From a virus (taxonomy: Duplodnaviria > Caudoviricetes): a stretch of 64,000 bases of DNA. The stretch spans positions 9,404 through 73,403 of IMG/VR virus record IMGVR_UViG_3300042295_001683; one strand, 5' to 3'. A model generated the notes under the pieces. The model had not been told where the DNA came from. It saw only the letters and a list, made by a program, of their open reading frames with translations, and did not search any database. The first letter of the stretch is position 1. Each line of letters begins with the position of its first letter. This document shows positions 2,586-50,498 of this stretch, piece after piece. The translations under genes and the position numbers were made by a program.

Positions 2586-3173
2586 TTATTCAAAAAATCC
2601 GCATCCTAGATGTTTGCGACCTCCCAACCCTTTCTCTTGTAATATTAAAGACTCGTTAGGGCGCAAATCTGAAAACATTACAGGGTATACAGCACACGGT
2701 TGCTTTTTAATAATTAGCTGCTCCTTGCGCCCTATTGTTGGCAGTGTATTAATATCAAACTTTGTTAGTTGCTTGCCTAGCGACACCGCAAACCTAGTAA
2801 GATCGGGTTCACGATTGTTGTCGGTTTTAATTGATACCCAAGCCGCTAGATTCTCTTGAGATTTTAGCTCTGTGCCATTAACCAGCTTGAGTTTAATCAA
2901 CTCTTTGCCTAAATGGATTTGACAATCAAAAAGCATCGTTAGCTCTGTAATTAAATCTTTGGAGCAACGTAGCTTTATAGTGCTTTGAGTTAAACGTAAT
3001 GTGCGATCGTCAAAAATATTTGTGTTACTGATTCTACTGATCGCCCACTCAGGGTTATCTTTGAGCTTAGGAGATAAGCTGGTCAGCGCTGAATATAAGC
3101 AATAGTGATAATTCCGTGGGATTAACACCCCTTCAATACTGAATAAAAATTCTATAAAATTGCAGTTAGGCAT
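2586..3173 (-). CDS. cas6: Cas6 endoribonuclease (Cmx6/I-MYXAN-like)
   Basis: N-terminal F.I.G..IP.NYHY.LYSAL and C-terminal glycine loop LQEKGLGGRKHLGCGFF. Confidence 0.85.
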   Translation of the reverse strand: MPNCNFIEFLFSIEGVLIPRNYHYCLYSALTSLSPKLKDNPEWAISRISNTNIFDDRTLRLTQSTIKLRCSKDLITELTMLFDCQIHLGKELIKLKLVNGTELKSQENLAAWVSIKTDNNREPDLTRFAVSLGKQLTKFDINTLPTIGRKEQLIIKKQPCAVYPVMFSDLRPNESLILQEKGLGGRKHLGCGFFE

Positions 3174-3525
3174 TGATAATCACCAATCTTTTTTCACTAT
3201 CTACAGGTTGATGCTTGTTTGCAATAGATAAAAGAAAAAGCCCGTCATTTCCAGCCCTTACCCTATGAGGTTGCGAACCGTCTATAAAGTAGCAAGTTCC
3301 TTTGATGATTGGTTGTGTTTCATCGCCGCAATCAATCCATCCAGACCCCTCTACTCCAAACAAAATATGATCACCCTCATGGGTATGAAGAGAAGTTTTT
3401 TCGTTAGGTGCGAAATTCAACATGTCAGCAGCAAAGCCGTCTTTTTTTACCAGTGGCAATCCGATAGCTTGACTGCCATACATCTGATACCAGTAATCAG
3501 CATCTAAATAATTTTTAATTTGCAT
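3166..3525 (-). CDS. cupin-domain protein
   Basis: HTHEGDHILFGVEGSG ... GTCYFIDGSQPHRV metal-binding cupin motifs. Confidence 0.85.
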   Translation of the reverse strand: MQIKNYLDADYWYQMYGSQAIGLPLVKKDGFAADMLNFAPNEKTSLHTHEGDHILFGVEGSGWIDCGDETQPIIKGTCYFIDGSQPHRVRAGNDGLFLLSIANKHQPVDSEKRLVIINA

Positions 3526-4183
3526 ACAATAATCCTTTTAGGTATTCAAAATATTCTGGCGAAATCTTGCGAAACTCTTCTAATCTTGTAGCTTGATATT
3601 GATTGTTAGTATTTTTGCTGACATGATCTGTAGTTCGTTTTGCGCCTAAATCATAGGCTTTTAGGTATGGTAATTCATGGGAAAGCGTATAAGCCCAAAT
3701 ATCGTTTTCACTCCAATTAAAAACAGGGCAAGCTCTGTAATCTCCTTTTTTGTATTGATAGATAGCGCCATTTTTTAGCAAGGTTGCTTTACGTTTTGCG
3801 CTTTCTTCTATCCGCAATCCAACAAAAGCGACAGGATAATCAATCCATAATTTTTGTGACTTAACTTTGTTAGGGACATGATCGCCTTGCATCAAAATAG
3901 TTTGAATGTTTAGCCCAAATTTGTCCTGATATTTTGATTCTGTTTCAGCATAATTACTAATCATTTCTCTTTCATAATGTCCAAAAGAAATAGCCAAAAT
4001 ATTAGGACAAATCGACTGCACCAAATGAAGCATTACGACTGAATCCTTACCCCATGACACCGCAACATAAGAAGGAGCGATCGCTAAAGCCTCTCGAATA
4101 ATCTCTTTAGCTTTCTCAACTTTGCGCTTAAATGTTGGCAGTGTCGCATGAGCTAAGAATGCATCGCGTTCTATTCTCTCCAT
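3515..4183 (-). CDS. cysH: CysH/PAPS-reductase-like PP-loop protein (type IV-B accessory)
   Basis: AVSWGKDSVVM PP-loop, VGLRIEES, CPVFNWSENDIWAY. Confidence 0.85.
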   Translation of the reverse strand: MERIERDAFLAHATLPTFKRKVEKAKEIIREALAIAPSYVAVSWGKDSVVMLHLVQSICPNILAISFGHYEREMISNYAETESKYQDKFGLNIQTILMQGDHVPNKVKSQKLWIDYPVAFVGLRIEESAKRKATLLKNGAIYQYKKGDYRACPVFNWSENDIWAYTLSHELPYLKAYDLGAKRTTDHVSKNTNNQYQATRLEEFRKISPEYFEYLKGLLYAN

Positions 4184-4857
4184 ACATTATCCGTTGGCAT
4201 ATAGCATATAGTTCTATTGGATTGCAGAAAATACGGTGTTCGCCACCCCCAGTTCATCATATTGATAGATTGAGGTTGTGGAATCATATTAATTGGCATT
4301 GGTCGGGCTAAACTTTCACCTCTCCACAAATGCCAATCATGTTCAAAAGGAAGTACTTCCCATTTGTGTACCTGCCCGCAACCTTGCGATCGCTTCTTAC
4401 CAAGATGCGTAACATTTAGAATTAGTTCGCTAATCTTGTCAGCATTGCCAATCGCAAACCAGTGTATAGTCTGCATTTCGCGATCATATCGTGGTAAATC
4501 ATAGGCTTTAAAATGCCCTTGCGAACTATCAACCTTAGCTTTCTTTTTACCCCAATCAAGGTGTAGTTCTTGCTTGTCCCATCGCTTACGGTAACGCTGA
4601 GTTTGTTGATGATTTTCGATGTAATGTGGTGAACTCACGGCCCAATACCACTCGCCTTTAAGCGTCTTCCGAGCGATCGGCATTTCATCAAAAATCAAGG
4701 GCAGATTCTTTTCAGCATCCGCAGCCGTTGGATTAGGCGTGATTAACCCTAATTGGTCTAACAATTGATACTCAATCAGGGCATCAAAGCTAGGGGACCA
4801 GTCATCATAGGCAACTAGCGGCGTTGCCATGTGTGCAATTATTTGGAGGTTATCCAT
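4171..4857 (-). CDS. csf3: type IV CRISPR Cas5-like RAMP
   Basis: LQIIAHMATP start, SSQGHFKAY, HLGKKRSQGCGQVHKWEV G-loop, LARPMP, GWRTPY. Confidence 0.85.
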   Translation of the reverse strand: MDNLQIIAHMATPLVAYDDWSPSFDALIEYQLLDQLGLITPNPTAADAEKNLPLIFDEMPIARKTLKGEWYWAVSSPHYIENHQQTQRYRKRWDKQELHLDWGKKKAKVDSSQGHFKAYDLPRYDREMQTIHWFAIGNADKISELILNVTHLGKKRSQGCGQVHKWEVLPFEHDWHLWRGESLARPMPINMIPQPQSINMMNWGWRTPYFLQSNRTICYMPTDNVWRE

Positions 4858-6058
4858 TCAATAAACTCCTAATATCGCTTTTAGAATCAGCAAGAAATCC
4901 TTTGTAATCTTCGAGATATTCTTTATACCTTGCATGAGATTCAGAGGCGCGATCGCTTAATTTCTGAGCATGAGGTGTAATCGTCATAAACTCACCGCGA
5001 TCGCCCTCCGCAGTCTCAAACCAGAATTGCATAGAACATAGTCCGCAACCCGTTCCTGATTGACCGCCTAAGTATGGCGATTCAGCAAACTTGAGTAAAG
5101 CATCAGCAATAAATCCTTCTTCGATTCTGGTGACGTTTGCGCTCCAATAAGAGTACAAAGTAGCACCTGTTTGAAGTAGCCAATTACCCATGATCATCTG
5201 TTGGCTTTTCTCTCTTTCGGGCTTTGCTTTGTCACCTTTCCCTTTCTTAGTTTCTTCAGAAACTATGCCAAATAGATCGCCTTGAGAAATCATCTTTTGA
5301 GGTTCTGGAGTAGCGCCGATCAAATGTTTTGCAAAGTTAGGATCGTGAAGTGAATCGCGCCTTGTCTTTTGGCTATAGGTAAGCCAATCGGAATAATATC
5401 GAAGCCTTTCTCCCAAGAACGGCATCCATTCAGCAAGCAATGCCTTTAGATCGTAATTATTAACATCCGAAGGAGAACCATGATGTAGCCATTGATTCAC
5501 TCGTTGACTATGCTGTAAGTCTTTGCCATCGATAATCTGCTCTAGTGCTGGTATGACTTCGATTGGCAACGCAGGGGGGAACATCTGATAAAGATACTTA
5601 GCGCTCTCTACACAAGCCAAATAAGCATCACCAACAGCGATCCGACCGTGCACCATTTGAGCATCGGATACACCAAACAATCCTTTAGGTTTGGCGGTTC
5701 CTAGTACTGAGAGGCATGGCAAAAGCTGACGGATTTTTCTATCCAAATCCAAATCATTACCCGTGCCACCATCAATCGCGCCGCCACAAAATAGAGCGTG
5801 ATGCATCGTTGGCGATACTTGCACACCAATCTGAGATAAGAAAGAATCAATACCACACCGCCTTAAAATTCGATTGCGTAGTGAGTTGCCAGAAAGTGTG
5901 AAAACTTCAGAGGGATTGCCTTCTAAATCCGTCACCTTCATTGTTCGCAAGTTTGTTTGATTGCCTACGGACTCACTGATATGGGACAAAGGCTGTAGCA
6001 AAGTAATCTGCAAATGTAGTTTGATATTATGGCGATCGTGTGGGTTGTAATTAAGCAT
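4850..6058 (-). CDS. csf2: type IV CRISPR Cas7-like backbone protein
   Basis: ITLLQPLSH, LSGNSLRNRILRR, LFCGG, IRQLLPCLSVLG, YLGGQSGTGCG. Confidence 0.88.
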   Translation of the reverse strand: MLNYNPHDRHNIKLHLQITLLQPLSHISESVGNQTNLRTMKVTDLEGNPSEVFTLSGNSLRNRILRRCGIDSFLSQIGVQVSPTMHHALFCGGAIDGGTGNDLDLDRKIRQLLPCLSVLGTAKPKGLFGVSDAQMVHGRIAVGDAYLACVESAKYLYQMFPPALPIEVIPALEQIIDGKDLQHSQRVNQWLHHGSPSDVNNYDLKALLAEWMPFLGERLRYYSDWLTYSQKTRRDSLHDPNFAKHLIGATPEPQKMISQGDLFGIVSEETKKGKGDKAKPEREKSQQMIMGNWLLQTGATLYSYWSANVTRIEEGFIADALLKFAESPYLGGQSGTGCGLCSMQFWFETAEGDRGEFMTITPHAQKLSDRASESHARYKEYLEDYKGFLADSKSDIRSLLNG

Positions 6059-6575
6059 TGATAGTAGCCTCTACATCTAGAGTATTTTCTGTTTCTTCTG
6101 GAATATTCAAAGCGCGATCGCTTTCAAAGCGAACACGACAATAAGTAGTAATAATGTGCGGTCTTGATTTGCACAAACCGAGGATATGGCGATCGCTTAT
6201 CCCGTGAGGTTTAAGAGAGTTGAGAATATCTTGCCATCCGAGCCATTGCAAATGTTGATCGCTATCAATTTGCTGAATGTCTCCCATACTGCCATCATCA
6301 TTCACAGTAGCCCGTAAAACCACTTGTTTTGGCGCGATTATGCGAGTCCATTCTTTTGGGTTGAGGTGTGCAACAATAAGCTTCTTGGCTAAATTCTCAA
6401 TGTAGTCGTCGATATTGCGAGAGGGAATAGCAGCATTTTGGATACTGCTTTGAAAATATTCCCATGTTTTTAAGCCCATGGCAGGGCTTTTGCCCTTGTC
6501 TCTACAGCGAAAAACCCAGTAACTAAGCGCACTGGCTAAAGCTGTAACCCTGTCTTCCGTTTCTATTCCATACAT
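6051..6575 (-). CDS. cas11: probable Cas11-like small subunit
   Basis: helical 174-aa ORF coupled directly upstream of csf2, the usual IV-B position; WEYFQSSIQNAA...DDYIENLAKKL. Confidence 0.55.
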   Translation of the reverse strand: MYGIETEDRVTALASALSYWVFRCRDKGKSPAMGLKTWEYFQSSIQNAAIPSRNIDDYIENLAKKLIVAHLNPKEWTRIIAPKQVVLRATVNDDGSMGDIQQIDSDQHLQWLGWQDILNSLKPHGISDRHILGLCKSRPHIITTYCRVRFESDRALNIPEETENTLDVEATINA

Positions 6576-8501: not shown

Positions 8502-8583
8502 TATTTAACCTCAGTTAAGTTCTGGCTATCCCAAAGAGCTTTTTGCGCTAGCCATGCTTGGATGTCTTCAATTTTGACGATCA

Positions 8584-9356: not shown

Positions 9357-9544
9357 TCGTAACTCTCGCTTTCCAAAATAGTAATCAATCCAGTGTCAAT
9401 CATTTTCATCATCAAAGGATTTGTTTGCACTAAATCCCAGTTATACCAAGTAGGCTTTTGATTAGCCAAAAAAGATTCTAAAAGCTTCCAGTTCTTTCCT
9501 GCTAATTTGCGAATCCATCGAAAGTTAGTTAAAAATCTATACAT
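9353..9544 (-). CDS. hypothetical protein
   Basis: coupled ORF. Confidence 0.5.
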   Translation of the reverse strand: MYRFLTNFRWIRKLAGKNWKLLESFLANQKPTWYNWDLVQTNPLMMKMIDTGLITILESESYE

Positions 9545-13800: not shown

Positions 13801-14712
13801 TTATTGGAGCAATGACGCTAAATATTTAACTCTAAGCAATGGCACAACAGCGCACTGAGGGACGATCGCATTACCTAATGCTGAAAGTCTGTCCAGCCTA
13901 TTGGGAAGCCCTGCATCCACTCCACAAACTGGGGGCTCAATACTTGCCCAGTGGCTAAGCCTAGAATGTGATCCAATGTTGGCTGATTTCGCAATGCTTC
14001 GCTCGGCGCTCCTGTCTCCTTGGCTAGATGTGCTGTTGGTGTCGGTAATAGCTTTTGCAATGCAGTTACTAGACCGTCTCCGCTTGTTTTGCTTGACCCC
14101 TTGCGGTTGTGGTTCCCGCAAACTGAAGGGGTAGGTAGAAGCAATCGCAACTTGACATCTAATTTGGTCTGCCCAGGTCGATGGCTCTTTTGAAAACTGT
14201 AAGCCTGTGGGGTAGGCAATGAGAAATATTCGCTCTCTAAGGTGTGGCGCTCCAAGGGCGGCTGCGCTGATAACTTGCCATTCCGCATCATACCCGCTTT
14301 CGGAAAGGCTCCTGAGAACTTCTCTAAATCCGTTGCGAAAAGCTCCTGCGACGTTTTCCCAAATAAGGAAAGTTGCTCTACTCTCTTTGTAGATTCGTAA
14401 TTGTTCAAACCATAGACTTGACCTTTTGCCCTCGATAATGCCCTTCTGAACTCCTGCGATAGAAAGATCTTGGCAAGGCGATCCCCCGACAACAAGATCG
14501 CAGTATGACGTAGGTTTATAGGTTGTGACATCATCATAAATTGGTGTATTTGGAAAGTTTTTCTTTAATACTTTTTGACAGAACGGATTAATTTCTACTG
14601 AGACGATCGTCTCAATTCCTCCAACCCAATCGCTGGCTAGTCTAAAGCCGCCTATTCCTGCAAATAGCTCGATCATTTTGAGTTTCATTGCACTAGCTCC
14701 ACTAACTCGCAA
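13801..14712 (-). CDS. DNA (cytosine-5) methyltransferase, large subunit
   Basis: ELFAGIGG (I), GGSPCQDLS (IV), WENV (VI), PHLRERIF (VIII), ALGNAIVP (X). Confidence 0.92.
   Translation of the reverse strand: MRVSGASAMKLKMIELFAGIGGFRLASDWVGGIETIVSVEINPFCQKVLKKNFPNTPIYDDVTTYKPTSYCDLVVGGSPCQDLSIAGVQKGIIEGKRSSLWFEQLRIYKESRATFLIWENVAGAFRNGFREVLRSLSESGYDAEWQVISAAALGAPHLRERIFLIAYPTGLQFSKEPSTWADQIRCQVAIASTYPFSLREPQPQGVKQNKRRRSSNCIAKAITDTNSTSSQGDRSAERSIAKSANIGSHSRLSHWASIEPPVCGVDAGLPNRLDRLSALGNAIVPQCAVVPLLRVKYLASLLQ
13875..14537 (-). CDS. nested alternative-frame ORF, probable small MTase subunit carrying motif IX
   Basis: LPTP repeats and LSPQFVEWMQGFPIGWT, lying wholly inside the MTase gene in another frame. 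Confidence 0.65.
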   Translation of the reverse strand: MMMSQPINLRHTAILLSGDRLAKIFLSQEFRRALSRAKGQVYGLNNYESTKRVEQLSLFGKTSQELFATDLEKFSGAFPKAGMMRNGKLSAQPPLERHTLESEYFSLPTPQAYSFQKSHRPGQTKLDVKLRLLLPTPSVCGNHNRKGSSKTSGDGLVTALQKLLPTPTAHLAKETGAPSEALRNQPTLDHILGLATGQVLSPQFVEWMQGFPIGWTDFQH

Positions 14713-15456: not shown

Positions 15457-16365
15457 TTAGAAATCGTCAGCGTCTATGCGGCTTTGTTCTTCTGGAGTAG
15501 GATCTGATTCATCCAACTCATGTGCAGACTTTACGGGTTGAGGGGCAACTTCCTGATTAAACTTCTTAGTCAAATCACCCAAAATATTAGTGATGATTGA
15601 GAGCTGATCTTGACTTGGCTCGTACTTGCTAGAGCTTTTCGCAACCCATGCTATAAGCTTTTCCAGATCCTCAATGGTTGCGCACTTATTTACGCCCTTT
15701 TCAAAGATTGCCCATAGCTTTTCATCCCATCCCGTTGCGATTTCTGGCTTTGGAATGCTGACTGGTTGAGTCTGTGGACTGACATTGCTAGCTTGATCCA
15801 TCTCTTCAGATGCATAAAGCCCAGCGGTTTGCTCTGGAAATGCTTTGCGAAGTGCTAAAGCCTCGGAACATTTACCGATCATGATGTCGGGCATTTTCTC
15901 CCATAGTCCTGAAAGCTTGCCTTTAAAGTCTTGTTTGTAAGCATCAAAACGAGCGACGGCTGTGAATGGTTGCCCACAACCTTTACGATATACAACAGTT
16001 TTAGCAGCGCTTGGCGGTGTTGATTTTAACCACACTTCCAACCATTTACCATCTTCTCCACACCAAAAAGTTGTAGAGCCGTCATAGTATCCAGAATTAG
16101 CAGCGCGTTTGCGAAGTCCATCAATCGATACTTGGATCGACATTTTTGGCTCTTTGCGCTGTGTCTCTGGGTTCCAAGTCTCCCTAGAGATTGCGTAAAT
16201 CTCACGGGTGAAAGGGCTTAAATTAGTCTGTTTGCAAACTTCAATGAAATAATCAAGTTCTGTGTCAGAGCATTTAGGCGCAATCTGTTGCTTGAGAACT
16301 TTCAACTGCTCAGGATTGAAATGCTGAGTGATGCTTGATTGAGATGTAGTTGTGATAGCTGACAT
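15457..16365 (-). CDS. bet: phage single-strand annealing recombinase Bet
   Basis: LSPFTREIYAI, IQVSIDGLRKRA, WEKMPDIMIGKCSEALALRKAFP, GLYASEEM. Confidence 0.92.
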   Translation of the reverse strand: MSAITTTSQSSITQHFNPEQLKVLKQQIAPKCSDTELDYFIEVCKQTNLSPFTREIYAISRETWNPETQRKEPKMSIQVSIDGLRKRAANSGYYDGSTTFWCGEDGKWLEVWLKSTPPSAAKTVVYRKGCGQPFTAVARFDAYKQDFKGKLSGLWEKMPDIMIGKCSEALALRKAFPEQTAGLYASEEMDQASNVSPQTQPVSIPKPEIATGWDEKLWAIFEKGVNKCATIEDLEKLIAWVAKSSSKYEPSQDQLSIITNILGDLTKKFNQEVAPQPVKSAHELDESDPTPEEQSRIDADDF

Positions 16366-17460: not shown

Positions 17461-17661
17461 ATGGCTTTATCAAAAATTTCAGAGCTTAGGCAAAGAAAAG
17501 GATTGACTCAAAAAGCTTTAGCTGACGAGTTAGGAATGACTGTCGCTGGTTTCCAAAATTGGGAGAAAGGTAAAAACAATAAGAAGTCTATTGAACGCTT
17601 TGCAAAATTATGCAAAGCATTAGGATGTAAACCTGAAGATTTAGTAGAGGTAGATTCATGA
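17461..17661 (+). CDS. Xre/Cro-type HTH regulator
   Basis: ISELRQRKGLTQKALADELGMTVAGFQNWEKG. Confidence 0.9.
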   Translation: MALSKISELRQRKGLTQKALADELGMTVAGFQNWEKGKNNKKSIERFAKLCKALGCKPEDLVEVDS

Positions 17662-18425
17662 GTGAAATTACAGTACAGAATGATTCTCCATTTGATGCGA
17701 TCCGCCGCTTTGATGAAAGTGGAAAAGAATATTGGATTGCTAGAGAGTTGATGAAGCTTTTGGGTTATACCAAATGGGAGAGGTTTGGGACTAAAGAAAC
17801 CCAGTCTAACCGTACATCGGTAATTAAAAAAGCAATCGCAGCTTGTCATAATGCAGGGTTTAACTCTGAAGAGCATTTTAACCATTTCCCCACATGGGGA
17901 AACACCCGTGAAGACTGGTTTCTAACTCGTTACGCTTGCTATTTAATTGCTCAGAATGGTGATCCTGAAAAGCAAGAAATTGCTATGGCGCAAAGCTATT
18001 TTGCAACTAAAACCCGTGAAGCTGAAATTGCAGAAATCAAGATCGAACCATCAATAAAGGCATTGCCAACTCGCGACGCGATTGATTACATTGAAGCTGC
18101 TGACAAGTTGGCTAAACTTCCAGATAGTCGCCTTACTCGATTACTATCTCAGATGTTTGTATCTGAAGTTGCTTTAATCAGCGCTAATCAGCGTCAAATA
18201 GCACCTGCAACAGAAGTCCAAAAGCAATACACTACAGCAACTGTAAGAGCTTCTCAACTTGGCTACACCGCTAAACAGATTGGCAATGGGACATCATTGG
18301 GTAAATTCGTAAAGGCTGTGATAGAGCCTGACTTTGTGGACTGGCAAGGGCAATATAAGGTTAATCACTTTGAAGTGAATGAAGTGCTTGACGCTCGTAT
18401 CCACTTATTCTTTGCGAGAGGTTAA
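17658..18425 (+). CDS. DinD/BRO-like antirepressor-type protein
   Basis: SPFDAIRR...EYWIARELMKLLGYTKWERF...LTRYACYLIAQNGDPEK..IAMAQSYFA. Confidence 0.8.
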   Translation: MSEITVQNDSPFDAIRRFDESGKEYWIARELMKLLGYTKWERFGTKETQSNRTSVIKKAIAACHNAGFNSEEHFNHFPTWGNTREDWFLTRYACYLIAQNGDPEKQEIAMAQSYFATKTREAEIAEIKIEPSIKALPTRDAIDYIEAADKLAKLPDSRLTRLLSQMFVSEVALISANQRQIAPATEVQKQYTTATVRASQLGYTAKQIGNGTSLGKFVKAVIEPDFVDWQGQYKVNHFEVNEVLDARIHLFFARG

Positions 18426-33384: not shown

Positions 33385-33903
33385 ATGTACGCATTTGACA
33401 GAGACGGAGTATTGGTGGGTGAGCTAGGCAATTTCGCTGCCAGTCACCCGAAAAACTACAAGGGCGCTGAGATGCCCCTTATCAAAGAGGTGCTAGCCAA
33501 AGTACCGCCTCATTCGATCATTATCAGTAATCAAGCTGGCATTGATCGCGGCTATACCACACTCAAAGTGGTACAAGCTCAATTTGATTGGCTCATGGCG
33601 CAGCAGCCTAATTTTATCGGGGCTTTCTTTTGCCCTGATGAAGGGGAAAGTTGCTGGTTTAAGTTTTTTTGGGCAGACGAATGGACAGAGCAGTTAGCGA
33701 TTGCCCCATACTTCAGAAAGCCTAATATAGGCTTGGGAGACTCCGCCAACGTGTATCTAAATCATTATGGGCTTGGCCAGATCACCCATTACATAGGAGA
33801 TCTTTCTGGCAACCCCGCCTATGCTGAGGGTAGAGACAGCGATCGCATCTTTGCGCAAAATCTGGGCTGTGAGTATTTGGATGTGAATGATTTTTTAGCT
33901 TGA
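33385..33903 (+). CDS. HAD-IIIA phosphatase (polynucleotide 3'-phosphatase/GmhB-like)
   Basis: FDRDGVL, ISNQAGI, RKPNIG, YIGD, SDRIFAQNLG. Confidence 0.82.
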   Translation: MYAFDRDGVLVGELGNFAASHPKNYKGAEMPLIKEVLAKVPPHSIIISNQAGIDRGYTTLKVVQAQFDWLMAQQPNFIGAFFCPDEGESCWFKFFWADEWTEQLAIAPYFRKPNIGLGDSANVYLNHYGLGQITHYIGDLSGNPAYAEGRDSDRIFAQNLGCEYLDVNDFLA

Positions 33904-35655: not shown

Positions 35656-36516
35656 ATGACAAGTTTAACTCAATTTGCATTTAATTCTCAACAGGTTCGT
35701 ATTGTTTCCATTAATAACGAGCCTTGGTTTGTCGCTCAGGACGTATGTGACATTTTAGATATAAGGAATGTCAGCAAGGCTTGTAACCCATTAAAAGATC
35801 GCGAAAAGCAAGTTTTAAATTTGCATGAGATGGGTATAACTTCAAGTGATGATCCAGACACCACAAGGCTTTTAGCGGTTTCAGAGTCTGGTTTGTACCG
35901 CTTAACCATGAAATCTCGCAAACCTCAAGCTGAACCTTTTCAGGATTGGGTATGTGAGCAAATCTTGCCAATCATCCGCAAAACTGGCAAGTATGAGTTA
36001 GCCCCATCTCAACCCGCACTACCTCAAAACTATATTGAGGCTCTAGAGGCACATCTACAATCTGAGAAAGATAAAAAGGTACTTGCTGAAGCTAACCAGA
36101 AATTGATCGCCGCCAATCAATCCCTAGAAATCGAAGTACAGACTTTAGAACCAAAAGTCGATCGCTATGATTTGATTTTGGCTACCGATGGATGGATGAC
36201 TGGGGAAGAGATTGTTAAGCAGTTGAATATTTCCAAGTTTTCTGTTCGCAAGCTTTACGACATTTTGCGTAAGGAGAAAGTACTATTTAATAGCGATGGC
36301 ACTAATTTACCTTATGCCAGTTGGCAAAATGAAGGGCTTGCTACGATTCGTGATGGTCAATGTTTTGATGGACGCATGAGATTTAGCCCTGTATTCTCTT
36401 GGAAGGGATTGGATCGCATTCTTGACCTATTGCGTAAACATCAAGTTATCCCAAGGGATAAGCAGTATCGATTTAACTTTGATTCTGACAAAATCGTAGC
36501 GATGAAGAGGGCTTAG
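35656..36516 (+). CDS. BRO-N phage antirepressor
   Basis: FNSQQVRIVSINNEPWFVAQDVC...SESGLYRL..KSRKPQAEPFQDWV..ILPIIRKTG; LPQNYIEAL; LEPKV. Confidence 0.9.
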   Translation: MTSLTQFAFNSQQVRIVSINNEPWFVAQDVCDILDIRNVSKACNPLKDREKQVLNLHEMGITSSDDPDTTRLLAVSESGLYRLTMKSRKPQAEPFQDWVCEQILPIIRKTGKYELAPSQPALPQNYIEALEAHLQSEKDKKVLAEANQKLIAANQSLEIEVQTLEPKVDRYDLILATDGWMTGEEIVKQLNISKFSVRKLYDILRKEKVLFNSDGTNLPYASWQNEGLATIRDGQCFDGRMRFSPVFSWKGLDRILDLLRKHQVIPRDKQYRFNFDSDKIVAMKRA

Positions 36517-36518
36517 TT

Positions 36519-37154
36519 ATGTTTGACAAAGTTTACACAACTGAAGAGCTAACTAAAATTCTAGAAATAGAGAGAATGGCTTGCGTCAAAGGTCAGGGCA
36601 CATTCCCTATGCCTGATAATGCCGATGAAATTGCAAAGCAAACACCACTAGGCTCTATTTTGGGGGCGCAAAGATTATTTGAGGTTGGTTGTTATCATGA
36701 GTTTCGCGATCAAGTTCAAAAGTATCAAATTGAAAATAATATTTCTGGGCTTGAAGTTGATGTTTGTATTATTGGTGACAAGCTCTATAGATTCCCTATC
36801 CCTGTCTGCCAATTAGAGCTAACTAAGGATGATTACCAAGTCTTGAAGTTAGCCAAAGACGCTGTAGTTGACGCATTCCTTAGTGCTGTTGATGAGCTTA
36901 CCTATTTGAGCTTTAGCCATGAAGACAAATCTCATGCTCAATTTGATATCGAAACTACAAGCCAATATATTAGACACCTTTCTGAGTTTTGCGACTGGGC
37001 AGAAATTACAGTCGCTAAAGAATTTGAAATAACTCTTGTTCTTGGCTATGGTGATTATCACGAATCTGCATATATTGCTGAGCATTCAGAAGCTGCAAAA
37101 TATTCTGATTCTATGTATTTCTGTGCTGCTAAAGCTTGCAAAATTAACGGGTAA
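36519..37154 (+). CDS. hypothetical protein
   Basis: 211-aa coupled ORF. Confidence 0.7.
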   Translation: MFDKVYTTEELTKILEIERMACVKGQGTFPMPDNADEIAKQTPLGSILGAQRLFEVGCYHEFRDQVQKYQIENNISGLEVDVCIIGDKLYRFPIPVCQLELTKDDYQVLKLAKDAVVDAFLSAVDELTYLSFSHEDKSHAQFDIETTSQYIRHLSEFCDWAEITVAKEFEITLVLGYGDYHESAYIAEHSEAAKYSDSMYFCAAKACKING

Positions 37155-37210
37155 ACCAATGTCTATCAAAATCAAATTCTCTTTGTTGCCTGAGTTGAGA
37201 AGAGCATATG

Positions 37211-37511
37211 CTTCCAATCAGCCGATCACTTAACCAGAAGTTTCACCACTATCGCCTCTCTTCCAATCAGCCGATCGCTTAACCAAAAGTTTCACCATTC
37301 TGAGTTTCCAAAAATTGCAAATAACCTTGCCTTCCAATCAATTGATCGTCTAACCACTAGTTTCACCATGAACTAGAGCGCCGCTTTACAGCCTGTATCG
37401 GTACTTCCAATCAGCCGATCGCTTAACCAAAAGTTTCACTGGACAAAATGACAATTTTATATGTCAGCTACCTTCCTTCCAATCAGCCGATCGCTTAACC
37501 AGAAGTTTCAC
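37211..37511 (-). CRISPR. mini CRISPR array: 5 repeats of 36 bp and 4 spacers (36, 37, 35, 13 nt reading from the leader)
   Basis: repeats at 37211-37246, 37260-37295, 37331-37366 (degenerate), 37404-37439, 37476-37511; minus-strand consensus GTGAAACTTYTGGTTAAGCGATCGGCTGATTGGAAG. Confidence 0.93.
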
Positions 37512-39240
37512 CTAACAGATCCCAAAAACCAAGCTGAGAGCCAATATTAGGATCGATTTGCGCGGATCGCTTACGAGATTGCAATTTAGAGTCGGCTTTA
37601 GATAGTGATTTTAAATCTTGCCATAGCTCAAAGTCTTGTGGTGATTGGTTTTCAGAGTTTGCGCGAGTGGTTAGGTTGCGATCTAGCTGTAAATCATTGT
37701 CTGGTAAGGGCTTAAGCTTATCAGCTTCCAATCTTTTATCAGTACTATTTACAGCCCCGCTTTCGCGGTTGATTGCGGGAGTTGTTTCTCCTCCCGATCC
37801 TTTCTTACTCTTGCGAGTCTTACTCGGTTGGCGCTTCTTCCCATGCGTTGCATGATCCACGCCCTTAAATTCCCCCGATGAAGCGGGGTATGGTATCAGT
37901 ACCAAGCCTTTAAAAGCAACATTACGGATAACGGTTGAGGCGTTGTTATCTGCGTTGTCACCATGACCACAATTCAAGCATTTAAAAACAGCTTGAGATG
38001 GTCGAAACTTTTCGGAATAGTAGCCACACTGAGAGCAACCTTGAGAAGTGTGCGGTGCGGGTACTTTCACAAATATTCTTTCTGATGCTTTAGATTTAGT
38101 CTCTAGCATCGTCTTTGTTTTACCGATCGCCACATCATGAAGCGATTTATTTAAACCAGCTTTAGCAGCCGATCCGTTGGGTAGAAAAGCGCCATTTTCA
38201 CCAGCTTTCGCCTTTGGTGCGCGTACCATATTTTTAACTTTGGTATCTTCAATGGCGATGCTTTGATATTCACTTACATATTTTGAAGTGAGCTTATGGA
38301 TAAAGCGATCCCTTTGCCTAGCGATTTTAAGATGCGCTTTAGCTAGTTTAGAGCGTTTAGCTTTTAGCCTGTTAGAGCCATCTTTTGAGCGAGAGATAGA
38401 GCGCTGAATACGAGCTAATTTCTTAGCTTGCATCTTTGCGTAACGCTTAGATTTGTGTAGTCTCCCATCACTATCTGCAATAGGAGCGACTACACCAAAA
38501 TCTAAACCTACTTCTTGCTTTTTTGCTGGTTTAACGGGCTTTACATCTACCGTGCTAGTGAATTGCACATAATAACCATCAGCTTTTTGGACGATGCGTA
38601 CAATCGTATGATTGCCAGCATAGCGACGGTAGAATCCCTTGCATTTGATTTGTCCTAGTCTTGGATAATCAATTAATGCATTGTCATTACCCAAGGGCAA
38701 AATATTAACGTATATCCGACCGTTGCCATTAGAAAAGCTTTCTAATTTATCAGCTTTCTTTTTGTAACGTGGTCTGCCTTTTTTTCCCTTGCGGTACTGA
38801 GTCCATGCATCAATTAGGTTATCCACAACAGATCGCCGTGATTCGCCATCAATAGAGTGTAGAAAATCAGGACACCGCATATTAGCGATAAAGCGATAAT
38901 TTTTAACGTGCTTAAATGGCTCTTCAATATCCCGATGTTTGCGGATGTCGCATTTATCAGGATAGTAAGCACAGCAAAGCCCGTATTGATTATCAGGATT
39001 TACATACTCAATCCCGTCGATTTTGCATGATTTTCGCCATTGCCATACTTCAGGACTATACTCTGCCCATTCTTGTTTTGCCCTCCAATAACGTTGCTGA
39101 TCTTCCTCAAGCAGACTTAAACCAACATTCCATACCCATTTAAGTTGAGTAAGCCACAAATCAATTTGTGTGCTTTGCTCAATCGTGGGAGACAACTTAA
39201 ATTCAGTTATCTTTTTAGTAGTGGCTTCATTGCTAGTCAT
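37495..39240 (-). CDS. TnpB-like type V effector (C2c8/V-U2-like compact Cas12)
   Basis: EFKLSPT...WVWNVGL; RuvC-I VGLDFG, RuvC-II IAIED, HTSQGCSQC/CLNC Zn ribbon, RuvC-III NADNNAS; abuts CRISPR array; no tnpA nearby. Confidence 0.85.
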   Translation of the reverse strand: MTSNEATTKKITEFKLSPTIEQSTQIDLWLTQLKWVWNVGLSLLEEDQQRYWRAKQEWAEYSPEVWQWRKSCKIDGIEYVNPDNQYGLCCAYYPDKCDIRKHRDIEEPFKHVKNYRFIANMRCPDFLHSIDGESRRSVVDNLIDAWTQYRKGKKGRPRYKKKADKLESFSNGNGRIYVNILPLGNDNALIDYPRLGQIKCKGFYRRYAGNHTIVRIVQKADGYYVQFTSTVDVKPVKPAKKQEVGLDFGVVAPIADSDGRLHKSKRYAKMQAKKLARIQRSISRSKDGSNRLKAKRSKLAKAHLKIARQRDRFIHKLTSKYVSEYQSIAIEDTKVKNMVRAPKAKAGENGAFLPNGSAAKAGLNKSLHDVAIGKTKTMLETKSKASERIFVKVPAPHTSQGCSQCGYYSEKFRPSQAVFKCLNCGHGDNADNNASTVIRNVAFKGLVLIPYPASSGEFKGVDHATHGKKRQPSKTRKSKKGSGGETTPAINRESGAVNSTDKRLEADKLKPLPDNDLQLDRNLTTRANSENQSPQDFELWQDLKSLSKADSKLQSRKRSAQIDPNIGSQLGFWDLLGETSG

Positions 39241-39246
39241 ATACTG

Positions 39247-39276
39247 ATAGTATCATAGTATTGATACTATTGACAA
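39247..39276. promoter_or_regulatory. divergent promoter / inverted-repeat operator
   Basis: ATAGTATCA-N6-TGATACTAT; minus strand TTGTCA-N18-TACTAT ending 6 nt before the cas12 ATG. Confidence 0.55.
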
Positions 39277-39304
39277 GCTTTTAATACAAGCTTTTAATTG
39301 TGAT

Positions 39305-39514
39305 ATGGCTTTAAGAAATATAGTTAAAGAATTTCTGGAAGAAAGAAAAATAACCGCTTATCAGTTCGTCAAAGAAACGGGGATAAGCGGTACAACTGGC
39401 TATGAGTTAGCGCGTAACCCTTGGCATATACCATCTACAGGCTCAATCGCTAAAATCTGCGATACCTACAAAATTCAACCATCTGAAATTGTTGTTTGGG
39501 TAGGGAATGAATAA
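39305..39514 (+). CDS. Xre/Cro-type HTH regulator divergent from cas12
   Basis: VKEFLEERKITAYQFVKETGISGTTGYEL...IAKICDTYKIQPSEI. Confidence 0.85.
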   Translation: MALRNIVKEFLEERKITAYQFVKETGISGTTGYELARNPWHIPSTGSIAKICDTYKIQPSEIVVWVGNE

Positions 39515-39580
39515 CAGCCGCATAAGCTAAAATCATGAAGCAAGGTTAAACACTATCTTTAGCGTTGAGTCAGCCCCTTG

Positions 39581-39620
39581 CAACAAAAAGCCGATCGCTT
39601 GTTGGTCGGCTTTTTTGTTG
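39581..39620. terminator. intrinsic terminator
   Basis: CAACAAAAAGCCGATC...GGTCGGCTTTTTTGTTG. Confidence 0.75.
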
Positions 39621-39688
39621 CGTAATCTCCTATACAAAAACCTGCGAGATACTTGCAATAATTAACCAACGTATCAAGTAAGAATATT

Positions 39689-39889
39689 ATGCAAGTTTGC
39701 GATATTTGCGGCGCTCAAGAAACTAACGGTAATATCTCCTTATCAGCCGACCGCAATCGGCATATATCTGTATCTAATAAGGATTTGCATTATACAAGAT
39801 GTTGCCAGATCGCTATCAGTCGAGGTCGCAAAGGTTGTTTGAATAGATTAGGAAAAGTTATAGATCTTTCTACTCTGTTTGGTGTTTAG
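39689..39889 (+). CDS. small Cys-rich protein
   Basis: CDICG...TRCCQ...GCLN. Confidence 0.55.
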   Translation: MQVCDICGAQETNGNISLSADRNRHISVSNKDLHYTRCCQIAISRGRKGCLNRLGKVIDLSTLFGV

Positions 39890-39890
39890 A

Positions 39891-42800
39891 TTACATACTC
39901 AACGCCGCCGATCGTGCCATCTCCCTTTGAATTTGCAAAGCGATCTCAGTAGCATTACCGCTACCAGTCGTCACATTTACGTTATAGGTTTTGTTACCGC
40001 CCGAATTGTTCAATACGTTCTTAGTCTGATTTGCAGGTAGGACATTAGAGCCTCTAGGCAATGTCACAAGCTCAGCACCTCGTTCTCCTACCAATGCAAT
40101 ACCGCCGCGGAAGTTTGTAACACCACTAGCAAAAGCAGGAACTTTTCCTACCCCTACAGCGCCGCTAAGTGGTGAAGCCCCTTTGGCGACTGATAGAGCG
40201 CTGATAATTTGCTGTGCAGACTTACCTAAAATTTGCTGTATCTCAATCGCAGACGCTTTATCTAGCGCCCTTTGTTGCTCTTTAAATACTCTCTCACGTT
40301 CGATTTTCTGATCCTCAAACGCCCGATCAAGCGCTAGCTCTTTCTCTTTTTGAGCTAACTTAATCGTCTCTAGCTCAGCATCAGCAGCTTTCCTGAGTGC
40401 TAAGTCCTCGTTAGTTTGCTGTAGTTTTAAAGCACGTTCTTCATCGGCTTGCTGCTTTTTAATTGTTGCAAGTTCACCTCTCTCGAAAGCTAATTTACTA
40501 GCCTGTAATTCAGCTTCGATTCTTTGTTTTTCAGGTTTGAGTACAGTGTTCTCAAAGTTCAACTTAGCAGCGTTTTGCTCAGCATCAAAAGCCAACTTAG
40601 CAGCGTTTAATTCAGCTTCAAAAGCCTTGTCACTAGCTCTCTTGACCTCTGTGCGCTTTACATCTTCAGCTTTATCGATTTCAAGCTGCTTGGCTTTGTT
40701 GGCTTTCTCTAATTCGTCCAATGCAAGTTGTACTTTTTTCTGCTCTTCACCCGTAGCGATCGCGGATACTTGAGCTATTTGCTTGGCTTGAGCAACTAAC
40801 TGTTCTTGGCTTTGTACTCCGCCCTGTCCTTGGGTAGCTGCTTGTGCTCTAATGCGATTCTCTTCTTCGATTTGCGCTGCAATCCTAGCCCGATCTTCGG
40901 GCTTGGCAGTAGCGATCGCGCCTTCATTACTGATTAATTGCTTAGCTTTTGACAAAGCCTCAGATGCTTGTTTATCACGCTGAGCGCGTTGCGCTGCAAA
41001 AGCTTCATCGTCTTTACGTTGCTTTTCTGCTCTCTGTTCCTTAAGTGCATTTTGCTTGTCATCAAAATCCTGCTTGAGTTTGTTTAGTTTCTCCTCGTTT
41101 GCACGTTTCTTGGCATCAAGAGCATCCTCAAGTTGTAGTTTTTTGGCATTCTGAGCGTCGTCAAATGCGCGTTGCTTATCTTGTAAAGCTAGGGTTTGCT
41201 TTTCCTTTAGTACCTCTGTTTCTAGCGCTTGCTTGCGATCTAGCTCACCTTTTGCGAGTGCATTTTTTTCTTCAATTGCTTTGATTGCATTGGCATTCTC
41301 ACGATCTCGCTTGGCTTTGGTGTCTTCAAAGGATCTCTTGATATTTTTTTCAGCGTCTTGGTTTTGGGCTTCCCTGATTCTTTCAGCTTGCTTGCGTTGT
41401 TCATCGGTTACTTCAGCTTCCTTTGCTGCTGTACTATTTACCGCAGCAATTCGATCTTCTAAAAGTTTTTTGCGTTTGGAGAATATTGCAATCTCATTGT
41501 TTAGAAGTTTTTGTAAAGCAGGGTTATCAGAAGCGCCTTGAGCTTGCGCTTTCAAGGAATTAATAGCTAAATCAATATTTTCAACCTGCTCCTTGGTTTC
41601 TTTATTAAATTTCGCTACTCCTTCGGCACCCAATCTATTTTTAGCCCCTGTAGCGTCAATGGCTACACCGTATTTATTCAATACGTTGAGTGATTCGTCA
41701 AGGTCTTTGGTATATTCCTTTTGATTTTCAGCAAATTCAATTACTTCTTTTTGTCGCCCCCTTTGCGCCCCAAAAATATCAAATGTTGCGCCTTGTCTTC
41801 CTAATCCGTCGTCAGTAGTTTGCTCAGGTGGCGCTAGCTTACCGCGTAGCGCTTGTAATTCTGCTAATTTTTGCTTGTAATCCTGCAAGCTTTTTGTCGA
41901 TTCCGAAACATTAAAAGCTGATGATAATTGCTTACCTACTGCAATTAGTGGAATCGCAGCAATAGCAATTAACCCCAATGGCGTTGTCAGTGCATACGCC
42001 GCTACACTAGCAGCCGTGAGCGCACCTGTTAGCACTCCCGTACCTACAGCAAGTGCCCCTTGAGCGATCGCCGCTAATCCCGCTTTAGTGGTTAGCAGTG
42101 TAAAGGCATTACTAGCTAGGGTAGTCGCAAAGGTGAGGGCTTTAGTACCAAAAGCTGCAATACCAGCCGCCCCACCAAATAACTTTAACCCCTCAACAAA
42201 AGCTGGAGCCGCCGCGCCGATCGCTGTAAGAGCCGCACCTAATGTAACAATACCGCCAACTAGTCCAATAATCGCGCCTAAACCTACTTGAATTGGTGCG
42301 GGTAATTGGTTGAATACATCAACAGCCGCGCCTACAACCGCTATTAATGGCGCAAAAGCTGTTTGTGTACCACGTCCTAAATTTACTAAAGCTTCATTGA
42401 TTTTGTTGATTGCTGTTGTTATTTTCCCTTCAGCAGATTTAGCAACAACATCAAAACCAATTTGCGCTTTGCCCGAAGCATTGCCAACAGCTACTAGATT
42501 CTCATTAAAGTTCTTAAGGTCGTCGTTAAGTAAAGGGACAACAGCAGTTAAACCATCAATATCTGTAAAGATTTTAGATAGCTGACTACTGGTGGTTAAG
42601 CCAGCCACTTTTAATCGATTGAGTACACCTGTTAATCCTTCAGTTTTAAGCGTTGTAGCAGCGTTAGTGATCCCAATAGCCTTCAATGCTTCTTTTGCGG
42701 ATTGCGTGGGCTTAACCAAGTTGACGATCGCCTGTCTAATACCACTAACCGCAGTCTCGGTTTTAACGCCTTTAATCGTAACGCTTGCTATGGCAGCGTT

Positions 42801-49723: not shown

Positions 49724-49993
49724 CTACTCACCTTTAGTTTTTGGCTTGTACTTATGCACTTCCTTATACTTCTCAGGATGTGCCAATCGATAACGCAAAT
49801 CATACTCAGCCTGACTCATGGGCTTATCGCCTATTGTTTGACCGCCACGCTTGCGATCGCTGTCAGTCATGGTGACTGTTTTTCCTTCAGGAGTGAGACA
49901 GCCACGCCTACAGCGATATTGTTTCGCTCCTGATGATTTTGTACCGTTAAAGCACATTGGTTTATGGCAGTAGGGGCAGTCTGGGTTAGGCAT
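49724..49993 (-). CDS. small Zn-ribbon DNA-binding protein
   Basis: CPYCHKPM..NGTKSSGAKQYRC...GDKPMSQAE. Confidence 0.65.
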   Translation of the reverse strand: MPNPDCPYCHKPMCFNGTKSSGAKQYRCRRGCLTPEGKTVTMTDSDRKRGGQTIGDKPMSQAEYDLRYRLAHPEKYKEVHKYKPKTKGE

Positions 49994-50498
49994 TCTTTAA
50001 AGCCTCCATATGTGCGATATCTTGCGGTGTACCTGCGAAATTAATCCAGTTAAACCATTCAACTTTTTCGTCATCGGAAACAGGTGTATCGTATTCACAA
50101 AGCCTATAAGCTGTAACCCAATGGCGGTTAATTTGCCCTGCATAATCTTTCGGGAGATCATCACAGTAATAACCACAGAAATCAAAGCCGCCTTGTACAT
50201 ACTCAATAAAAGCGCTTAAACGCTGCTTTCCGTCAATTACTTGGTAAGTATCGCCAAGAGTTTGAACAACGCTAATAGGCGGAATAGATCGGCGAATCAG
50301 AATACTCTCAATTAGCGATCGCTTTTGGTCAAGAGTCCAAACTAAGGGGCGCTGTAGATTCAAACCTTTTGTTGGCAGATATACATCAAAGTCCCATCTT
50401 TTGCGTAATACGCTTTTACCTTGTGCAATAACAAGATTTCCAGATCCGATCTCTTGACGCTCTAAAAAAGAACTGCGTAGGGGTGGTAATTTACTCAT
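49986..50498 (-). CDS. stand-alone DUF262 (ParB/Srx-fold, GmrS-like) protein
   Basis: LQRPLVWT..QKRSLIESIL...IPPI...VIDGKQRL...FNWIN..GTP. Confidence 0.85.
   Translation of the reverse strand: MSKLPPLRSSFLERQEIGSGNLVIAQGKSVLRKRWDFDVYLPTKGLNLQRPLVWTLDQKRSLIESILIRRSIPPISVVQTLGDTYQVIDGKQRLSAFIEYVQGGFDFCGYYCDDLPKDYAGQINRHWVTAYRLCEYDTPVSDDEKVEWFNWINFAGTPQDIAHMEALKNA

Follow-up and report, generated by a model that had tools for sequence, protein, structure and literature searches.

A phage-borne type V-U2 CRISPR locus with a putative guide-RNA scaffold inside the effector gene and a clamp-binding-like motif at the end of the protein

The window studied here is a stretch of 64,000 nucleotides, positions 9,404 to 73,403 of the IMG/VR virus record IMGVR_UViG_3300042295_001683 (Duplodnaviria; Caudoviricetes; 73,403 bases, CheckV completeness 95%), and all positions given below are counted from its first letter. 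At 37211..39240 it harbours, on the minus strand, a compact gene related to TnpB and Cas12 which runs directly into a small CRISPR array. The open reading frame (ORF) encodes 581 residues (37495..39240, stop included). The array of five repeats of 36-37 nucleotides occupies 37211..37512 on the same strand and is the only one found in the 73.4-kb record. We read the locus as a phage type V-U2 module with a two-part guide RNA, a scaffold located inside the ORF and a protein tail ending in a hook for the sliding clamp, and assign this reading a probability of roughly 60%. In what follows the locus of the window is designated WIN, while L, P and G numbers denote loci of relatives, proteins and virus records, respectively (G000 being the record under study).

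The effector is matched by the Pfam families OrfB_IS605 and Cas12f1-like_TNB as well as by PADLOC and NCBIfam profiles. Its folded, TnpB-like core comprises approximately residues 1-445 (37906..39240) and is modelled by AlphaFold2 mostly at a predicted local distance difference test score (pLDDT) of at least 70. The three acidic residues of the RuvC site are D247 (GLDFG, codon 38500-38502), E331 (IEDT, 38248-38250) and D431 (NADNNA, 37948-37950), and a zinc ribbon of the type CxxC...CxxC (C402/C405/C421/C424) extends from C402 to C424 (37969-38037). In an alignment of 28 family sequences D247, E331, D431, C402, C405 and C421 are invariant and C424 is at least 90% conserved, in agreement with the original prediction, made from the letters of the DNA, of a TnpB-like ORF with intact RuvC acids and zinc ribbon. 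Because the RuvC triad is intact, the effector is predicted to be an active nuclease. The top profile match is the PADLOC model Cas12u2 (1.9e-104, 348.6 bits), in which residues 10-475 align with positions 2-442 out of the 445 of the profile; the profile 'Cas12f, CAS-V-F' nearly equals it with 343 bits. V_cas_c2c8 (NF038192) is the best-scoring NCBIfam family with 294.1 bits, which lies below its curated cut-off. Judged by these profile scores the effector is C2c8/V-U2-like, as had been supposed at the outset, and it represents a divergent branch.

Eleven full-length metagenome proteins, 67-90% identical to the effector, form a first group of homologues; a second, broad group at about 35% identity includes the proteins of Pantanalinema and Nostoc which carry the NCBI name 'type V CRISPR-associated protein C2c8'. 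A metagenome scan for further close homologues together with their DNA yielded L169 as the single full-length locus. In phages that have been isolated, the protein matching best is gp061 of Aphanizomenon phage vB_AphaS-CL131, which shares 35% identity over residues 10-445. The CL131 genome paper (PMC6293099) describes a putative type V-U2 locus whose array has 10 spacers and for which neither further cas genes nor a trans-activating CRISPR RNA (tracrRNA) were reported; a phage-borne V-U2 locus is, with CL131, an already known kind. Among solved structures the closest sequences are Cas12p (9jfs, 3e-60) and then ISDra2 TnpB (2e-43). A fold search started with the AlphaFold core returned ISDra2 TnpB, ISFba1 TnpB and Cas12p as top folds and matched Cas12f and LaTranC as well. 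Cas12p aligns to the effector in three separated stretches, the extra sequence being on the Cas12p side. In contrast to the effector's core of only about 445 residues, Cas12p contains, according to its description (10.1101/2025.01.20.633832), a thioredoxin-binding insertion in the recognition (REC) lobe.

The repeats of the array are located at 37476-37512, 37404-37440, 37331-37367, 37260-37296 and 37211-37247 and show 76-100% identity to the reference copy. They enclose spacers of 36, 37, 35 and 13 nucleotides (37441-37475, 37368-37403, 37297-37330 and, for the short one, 37248-37259). As originally noted, the TAA stop of the effector gene (37495-37497) lies inside the first repeat, the frame ending with GGT GAA ACT TCT GGT TAA. 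The record contains no copies of the repeat family besides those at this locus. Among relatives of the effector, which are carried by many viral contigs in IMG/VR, the arrangement recurs: arrays, counted from three repeats of 30 nucleotides upwards, are present in 32 of the 53 loci examined, downstream of the gene and on its strand, with repeats of 36-37 nucleotides which end in TTG-N-AA-G/C and with up to 28 repeats per array. The ORF ends at or within the first repeat in WIN, L006, L026, L029, L038, L055 and the second gene of L011. Since the frame of L169 (effector 79% identical) crosses repeat 1 and stops in the next spacer, the placement of the stop inside the first repeat is, on comparison of these loci, incidental; what is conserved is the start of the array two codons past the last conserved residues of the protein. 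L011 and L012 each contain two V-U2 systems in tandem (6761-8446 and 8443-9395), and the second gene, encoding 561 residues, ends in QLTLW with its stop within its own first repeat. L087 shows no clear array adjoining the gene and was excluded from the loop-repeat count reported below.

A TnpB-like protein next to repeated DNA might also be a mobile or recently immobilised IS200/IS605 TnpB served by a plain omegaRNA, in which case the 'array' would consist of duplicated right-end segments, perhaps with a regulatory or homing function; the original prediction had itself named an IS200/605 explanation. The NCBIfam model guided_TnpB scores 189 bits, above its own cut-off of 100, and the fold is nearest to that of ISDra2 TnpB (8h1j/8exa), with which the effector shares RuvC site and zinc ribbon at a template modelling score (TM-score) of 0.70 normalised to the target. 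In addition, the scaffold predicted below from sequence lies over the gene's 3' end in the gene's own orientation, as omegaRNA does in TnpB loci. The array is very small and includes a degenerate repeat and a spacer of 13 nucleotides, and no targets were found in the searches made; for the locus of CL131 a regulatory role was suggested by its authors (PMC6293099). On the other hand, searches of the whole virus record for the Y1 transposase (PF01797), Cas1 (PF01867) and Cas2 (PF09827) found none of them, with control genomes positive in each search, which upholds the earlier statement that tnpA, cas1 and cas2 are missing. Further copies or transposon ends were not noticed either, although no dedicated search for ends was made, and the confinement of the repeat family to a single locus speaks against a mobile element. 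Instead of the one guide of a TnpB there are several repeat-spacer units, and arrays of relatives can be far longer than this one. Spacers differ wholly between loci whose effectors are 92% and 79% identical to that of WIN, and a spacer of one relative matches another phage at 35 of 36 bases beside a GTC flank. Together with the intact RuvC triad and a tail motif which is absent from all 72 shorter TnpB-like matches, these findings render a mobile or recently immobilised TnpB highly improbable, and we continue with the locus as a V-U2 module.

Beyond the core, residues 446-581 are encoded by 37498..37905, a region predicted to be disordered in the protein, whose frame is open and which overlaps the proposed guide-RNA scaffold. 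The original prediction had regarded this DNA as a CRISPR leader through which the ORF reads. It is correct that the ORF runs into repeat 1, but the region is more than a leader, as it contains a conserved structured RNA element which we take for the scaffold. Comparison of WIN with L169 reveals in the core 60, 41 and 159 differences at the first, second and third codon positions (131 synonymous and 67 non-synonymous codons), whereas in the tail the differences are distributed about equally (32, 26 and 36; 13 synonymous and 48 non-synonymous codons) and some islands are identical even at synonymous sites. This substitution pattern is, as far as a pairwise comparison of sequences can tell, one of nucleotide-level constraint. 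The motifs CGCGCAAA that had been pointed out in the tail-coding DNA do exist there, twice on the gene strand (six times on both strands of the whole 73.4-kb record), and one of them is part of the nucleotide-conserved motif CGATCCGCGCAA at 37558..37569, about 50 nucleotides before repeat 1, which encodes R-S-A-Q. Its bases, synonymous sites included, are the same in WIN, L169 and L029, and variants occur in L026/L031, L055 and L087. In the form (A/C)GATCCGCGC the stretch is conserved at the nucleotide level in WIN (37558-37569), L169, L026, L029, L055 and L087, down to the rare GCG and TCC codons, and in most clades possessing it lies upstream of the protein's C-terminal motif by a constant interval.

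The most conspicuous RNA element is a hairpin at 37872..37888 with a 5-bp stem and the 6-nucleotide loop CUUCAU (37878-37883), whose first four nucleotides are complementary to GAAG, the last four nucleotides of the repeat, so that a pseudoknot between both is proposed. Folds calculated separately for different clades display the same stem architecture. A strict pattern consisting of UAC, a stem of 5-6 bp, a loop and GAA or AAA, situated about 20 codons past RuvC-III, is found in 19 of 22 loci; it misses L036, L040 and L047, and the folds of L036 and L040 exhibit a variant with a 4-bp stem. For the covariation analysis 11 of the 19 loci were aligned, one per type (10 distinct), the near-identical loci L006, L015, L019, L027, L031, L032, L039 and L051 being dropped. 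All 50 cells of this alignment pair, and four of the five pairs vary on both sides. The covariation score amounts to 0.791, compared to 0.237 ± 0.065 in shuffles, none of 500 of which reaches it, and in controls slid along the sequence at most 64% of the cells are paired. Since six cells are G-U pairs which would be mismatches if read on the opposite strand, an RNA read from the gene strand is favoured.

The loop also covaries with the array. In 12 of 13 loci its nucleotides 1-4 pair with the last four nucleotides of the cognate repeat, and shifting the repeat boundary of L043 by one base would bring this to 13 of 13; among non-cognate combinations only 15 of 122 pair at all four positions. 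The combination CUUC:GAAG occurs in WIN, L006, L169 and L055, CUUG:CAAG in L026, L032, CL131, L043 and the second system of L011, and GUUU:AAAC in the L010 clade, with wobble versions in L029 and L038. About 100 nucleotides past the hairpin follows a proposed anti-repeat, in WIN the sequence CAAUCA (37770..37775), which would pair with UGAUUG at repeat positions -10 to -5; a corresponding complementarity to the repeat bases adjoining the last four nucleotides, of like position and geometry, is seen in WIN, L169, L026, L032, CL131 (L005) and L036. Between L032 and CL131 an exchange of GA for AG in the repeat is matched by an exchange of TC for CT in the anti-repeat. Immediately after the anti-repeat, a GNRA-tetraloop hairpin, CCGC-GAAA-GCGG, is located at 37757..37768. 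The same place is occupied by CCCC-GAAA-GGGG in L026 and by CCCC-GCAA-GGGG in L029, a compensating change of the stem. For eight sequences RNAalifold yields 16 pairs, of which 13 show compensatory changes; misalignment disrupts some of the pairs. The row of L006 had been placed 12 nucleotides off in the input. A second stretch of seven nucleotides complementary to the repeat, CCAAUCA, is present at 37642..37648. Rfam models applied to 36800-40000 gave nothing relevant, the sole match being Leu_leader, far below threshold. From the covariation, the tail-coding DNA probably specifies a scaffold resembling a tracrRNA or an omegaRNA.

This arrangement has a close parallel in Cas12p ('Cas12 hacker', subtype V-P), which its description (10.1101/2025.01.20.633832) characterises as a miniature, phage-associated nuclease that binds host thioredoxin, possesses a 37-nucleotide repeat and a tracrRNA and prefers a GTN protospacer-adjacent motif (PAM). 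Nucleotides 7-10 of that tracrRNA pair with the last four nucleotides of the repeat, of which no more than 10 nucleotides are seen in the structure. In the same way, the V-U2 scaffold is predicted to form a 4-bp pseudoknot with the repeat end and a short repeat:anti-repeat duplex (compare 9jfs/9jg3). Phage association, a 37-nucleotide repeat and a disordered C-terminal region are common to both; Cas12p recruits a host protein, and the host partner proposed for the window's effector differs, being the sliding clamp bound via a C-terminal peptide.

The CL131 locus (L005; MG209611.1) retains the scaffold hairpin and the anti-repeat although a stop and a frame change interrupt its tail frame. It resembles the WIN locus in most respects: the best family matches are the same, the RuvC/zinc-ribbon protein is of TnpB size, an array of 36-37-nucleotide repeats follows downstream on the same strand, cas1 and cas2 are lacking, the carrier is a cyanophage and an antirepressor gene is nearby. 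In contrast to WIN, where the ORF continues for 136 codons into repeat 1 and ends with QLGFW, the annotated ORF of CL131 stops 255 nucleotides before the array; moreover, CL131 has 11 repeats compared to five, and the phage of the window additionally carries Cas6 and type IV genes. In the stretch 5390-5647 of L005, gp061 as annotated ends at a place where L032 reads on, the frame is interrupted once more downstream, and the bases which encode QLTLW are retained just before the first repeat. In the literature that we searched, V-U2 belongs to the last few groups of the original 'V-U' set that are listed with no guide RNA, PAM or mechanism described.

As a protein, the tail had been described in the original prediction as about 140 residues of low complexity. 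A tail of this size is indeed present and predicted to be disordered (AlphaFold pLDDT below 50 for residues 454-581); it is, however, better read as a maintained linker ending in a clamp-binding-like motif than as idle read-through, a view which we derive from the behaviour of its reading frame. Over 136 codons this frame contains no stop, compared to 6 and 17 stops in the two other frames, and only 5 of 20,000 composition-preserving shuffles of the tail stay open. Close to its end, residues Q569-L-G-F-W573 (37522..37536) form a pentapeptide of the type known from ligands of the beta clamp. The 11 close homologues differ by several insertions and deletions in the tail, yet all of them present GSQLGFWDL in frame. 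Across the family the end is conserved while the remainder of the tail cannot be aligned. The strict motif Q-[LMF]-x-[LIVMF]-[WF] occurs within the last ~35 residues of 27 of the 36 proteins P0001-P0036, compared to none of the 72 shorter TnpB-like matches (P0049-P0120). It is missed by P0014, P0017, P0024, P0025, P0027, P0032 and P0036, by P0035, which has QITIW, and by P0034, where a stop occurs 24 codons before the motif. Among the variants encountered in the family, QLSLF, QLTLF (there the extreme terminus of the protein), QLGLDL and QMVLAL equal the penta- and hexapeptide clamp-binding forms, QL[S/D]LF and Q-phi-x-L-x-L, given in bioRxiv 10.64898/2026.05.27.728225; a further variant, QMELDLW, follows them as well. 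The same grammar at the end of a disordered C-terminus is found in beta-clamp binders such as transposases and TnsE of Tn7, with the difference that the fifth position is mostly W in V-U2 proteins instead of F.

Conservation of this DNA could also be explained without any function of the peptide, namely if tail islands and C-terminal motif were conserved as DNA or RNA only (as leader, integration signals or scaffold) and the protein tail were a tolerated by-product which does not bind the clamp. The islands identical at synonymous sites, the nearly even spread of tail changes over the three codon positions and the recurrence of CGATCCGCGCAA in distant clades at the same spacing are all in keeping with this explanation, as is the fact that the motif lies two codons before the repeat in WIN, L026, L029 and L087 and that its bases persist in CL131 despite the broken frame. 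Yet an open frame as long as this one is rarely reproduced by the shuffles, the motif stays in frame in the close homologues in spite of the length changes of their tails, and its variants obey the clamp grammar, while the strict motif is absent from the 72 outgroup proteins. Furthermore, position 4 of the motif is encoded by TTT, ATC, GTT, CTC, CTT, TTG and TTA, so that bases 1 and 3 of the codon vary and only the middle T is fixed, which therefore indicates selection on the residue; other codons for Q and L are used in L036, L038 and L088. Conservation at the level of DNA or RNA only is thus rather unlikely in our estimation, even though the motif DNA may have a nucleotide-level role in addition.

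Clamp binding was further addressed by co-folding residues 541-581 with the DnaN protein of Nostoc as a stand-in for the host clamp. The complex scored 0.55, compared to 0.02 for the best of three controls, the runs agreed in at least 65% of contacts, without a reported interface, and the pLDDT of the partner was at least 51. The mark applied is reached by 116 of 157 solved complexes and by 2 of 215 mismatched pairs; scores of at most 0.60 were obtained for 18 of the 157 solved complexes and also for both passing mismatches. This result supports clamp binding weakly. According to Gomez 2014 (PMC3971601), a putative beta-binding motif is present at the C-terminus of OrfB proteins of IS200/IS605 in Cyanobacteria. 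A full-text literature search returned no paper in which TnpB, in its role as RNA-guided nuclease, or Cas12 is connected with a clamp-binding motif. We put the odds that the V-U2 tail binds the beta clamp at about even.

For the spacers themselves, the whole array was compared with INPHARED phages in distant mode, which gave chance-level short matches only (E 0.3-4). The first 22 nucleotides of each of the three full spacers, searched against IMG/VR, match only a near-identical contig carrying the same array, and comparison with 21 V-U2 phage records produced array-to-array matches plus matches of 14-25 nucleotides which we regard as chance. The original suggestion that the system is aimed at competing mobile elements thus gained no protospacer for this array; what was found is one spacer of a relative that matches the V-U2 locus of another phage. 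This case emerged from the comparison of 173 unique spacers of 32 arrays with the loci in hand plus the phage of the window. Of the 173, only spacer 2 of L024 has such a match: 35 of its 36 bases agree with L011/L012 8240-8275, where GTC precedes the site on the 5' side, and its protospacer is located in the tail of the second V-U2 gene of L011/L012. As a single case, it agrees with targeting of phage by phage and with a GTN PAM. The segment 8240-8275 of L011/L012 resembles the second array's repeat in inverted orientation, which would make it a candidate for a long anti-repeat. Of the large arrays in relatives which were searched against INPHARED, too, that of L051 gave no match, and that of L009 gave only repeat-like matches in the Microcystis phages MaMV and LMM01.

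WIN, L006/L007 (effector 92% identical) and L169 (79%) have no spacer in common, hence spacer turnover between them is complete. Because spacers turn over among such close relatives without cas1 and cas2, uptake by adaptation proteins of the host is suggested; to this extent, and as something merely suggestive, the reliance on host adaptation machinery assumed originally is retained.

The statement that cas1 and cas2 are absent holds, but the phage is not otherwise devoid of cas genes. At a distance of 31 kb from the V-U2 gene a cluster on the minus strand (2586..6575) encodes Cas6 (2586-3173; Pfam 7e-33, NCBIfam Cas6/Cmx6 above cut-off), a cupin (3166-3525), a CysH/PAPS-reductase-like protein (3515-4183), type IV Cas5/Csf3 (4171-4857; 4.9e-47), type IV Cas7/Csf2 (4850-6058; 4e-43) and Cas11 (6051-6575; 5.7e-13). 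Type IV-B systems include the large subunit Csf1, and Cas6 is unusual for them. No Csf1 was recognised in the cluster, and the small ORFs at 6604-6945 and 6945-7331 have no family. Neither the surroundings of the cluster nor the record's first 9.4 kb contain an array. By its gene content the cluster is possibly type IV-B-like and a second user of the V-U2 array.

The array might even serve mainly another effector, either the phage's own type IV-B-like complex with Cas6 or a class 1 system of the host, with Cas6 leaving an 8-nucleotide AUUGGAAG tag and the V-U2 gene being merely adjacent. The phage does encode Cas6 and type IV Cas5, Cas7 and Cas11 and has no other array. The repeats of the array have an ending of the AUUGNAAG type, typical of cyanobacterial repeats which are processed by Cas6. 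In the L009 clade the repeats closely resemble those of a long array beside a V-U2-like gene in Microcystis, and type IV Cas7 homologues are present in 4 of 21 other V-U2 phage records. Against such a division of labour stands that arrays adjoin V-U2 genes in records without Cas6, and that, across clades, the repeat's 3' end changes in concert with loop and anti-repeat, which ties the array to the V-U2 gene. Moreover, G001 and G002 keep the V-U2 array intact while their Cas7 is reduced to a remnant, and both uses of the array can coexist. That the V-U2 gene is a mere neighbour of an array belonging to another effector is accordingly unlikely. Cas6 was also considered as a component of V-U2 itself and rejected, as family and protein searches found it in none of 20 other V-U2 records while the control on the record under study was positive. 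In the individual records, the Cas7 of L181/L182 (G014 and G013, from the L026 clade) is full-length and 46% identical, and that of L183/L184 (G002 and G001, from the closest relatives) consists of 160-residue remnants which are 97% identical. The last ~25 nucleotides of the 37-nucleotide repeat of the L009 clade are almost exactly those of a 48-copy array beside the V-U2-like gene of Microcystis sp. genome L085 (4305-7726).

According to the V-U2 module reading, both parts of the guide RNA would be transcribed from the gene's own strand. The scaffold would be encoded in the last ~400 nucleotides of the ORF, with a core from about 37888 to 37757, and CRISPR RNAs would be processed from the array which starts two codons past the last conserved residues. 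As in Cas12p, the scaffold would grip the last ~10 nucleotides of the repeat, the CUUC loop holding GAAG and the anti-repeat CAAUCA holding UGAUUG. Because the scaffold gene lies within the ORF, translation of its DNA would yield a disordered linker, and it is our proposal that selection keeps the frame open because this linker ends in a clamp-binding-type motif, the terminal QLGFW, by which the nuclease would be tethered to sliding clamps of the host where DNA is being replicated. Spacers would presumably be supplied in trans by adaptation proteins of the host and aimed at rival mobile DNA. A fuller version, in which the same DNA is read twice (as scaffold RNA and as a disordered linker under selection at its terminal clamp hook only), the clamp delivers the nuclease to replicating rival DNA and the array may be shared with the type IV-B-like complex via Cas6, we put forward tentatively, considering it doubtful as a whole.

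Several observations weigh against the module reading. The score for NF038192 misses the curated cut-off of 350 bits, and three full spacers are without any target in the sets searched (INPHARED, IMG/VR and the 21 V-U2 records). RNA-library contigs of four runs cover parts of the stretch, and metatranscriptome contigs from two studies (37561-37887 and 37647-37875) both start inside the hairpin, which is a weak hint in favour of the scaffold, but these contigs give no strand, ends or level, and RNA libraries may contain DNA. No sigma-70-like promoter is predicted upstream of the hairpin; the regional matches number 6 compared to 6.1 expected from shuffles, and a scan of the region for promoters and terminators was not above shuffles. 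A duplex scan with the whole repeat was not above shuffled repeats either, the best non-self duplex (39470-39400) reaching -27.9 kcal/mol at a shuffled mean of -27.5, and cognate and non-cognate repeats cannot be told apart by the length of the best helix; the case for the anti-repeat is thus built on its position plus a few compensating changes. Regarding the clamp motif, its DNA is fairly conserved, Q-L being encoded by CAGCTT in 8 of 12 lineages, and its distance to the repeat hardly varies. Since tail and motif are lost in CL131 and cut short in L019-L021/P0034, the tail is dispensable in some lineages. Finally, complexes of the clamp with peptides have already been solved, and the pass of the co-fold may merely reflect these known structures.

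At the level of the family, the putative scaffold within the gene, the maintained tail with its clamp-like motif and the additional cas genes in the same phage are new. From loop, anti-repeat and repeat tag a specific single guide can be designed for a nuclease whose core has ~445 residues, and for which GTN, taken from Cas12p and the one GTC-flanked protospacer of a relative, is the candidate PAM. If the clamp tail is real, this would be the second phage Cas12 to borrow a host factor, after Cas12p with thioredoxin, and RNA-guided nucleases would be linked to the replisome as is known for some transposases. A protein tail laid over an RNA gene would constitute dual coding and would explain ORFs which run into arrays. 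With Cas6, a type IV cluster and only one array, the phage prompts the question whether two effectors use the array together; a shared array, if true, would be the first on a virus to be used by effectors of class 2 and class 1.

Regarding the setting, the V-U2 gene is phage-borne, as originally stated: it is part of an IMG/VR virus record and is surrounded by tape-measure, Bro-N/KilAC antirepressor-like and other phage-type genes. Directly upstream of the effector start, a sigma-70-like promoter match is located at 39247..39276 on the minus strand, a match to the consensus alone in a region whose count of such matches is not above shuffles, and a Cro/C1-type helix-turn-helix gene of 69 residues (39305..39514, plus strand; HTH_26, 1.5e-11) diverges from the effector gene. 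Family matches elsewhere in the window comprise a dCTP deaminase-like protein (8826-9356), a C5 cytosine DNA methylase (13801-14712), RecT (15457-16365), Bro-N proteins (17658-18425 and 35656-36516), a PNK3P-like phosphatase (33385-33903) and a protein with a GmrSD N-terminal domain (49986-50498). In four lake-water metagenome runs from four studies, ten possible source runs having been set aside, 93-97% of the sampled sequence words of the locus were recovered. The octamer GCGATCGC, which we take to be the highly iterated palindrome 1 (HIP1) signature of cyanobacteria, occurs 94 times in the 73.4-kb record compared to about 0.5 times expected from base composition, and because of this abundance the host is probably a cyanobacterium. 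Part of GCGATCGC also falls within the CRISPR repeat. A stretch of 20 nucleotides at 39735-39754, 500 nucleotides upstream of the effector in a non-coding gap of 376 nucleotides between the helix-turn-helix gene and the tape-measure gene, is 80% identical to part of the repeat, a similarity which may be due to chance given the many GCGATCGC-like sites.

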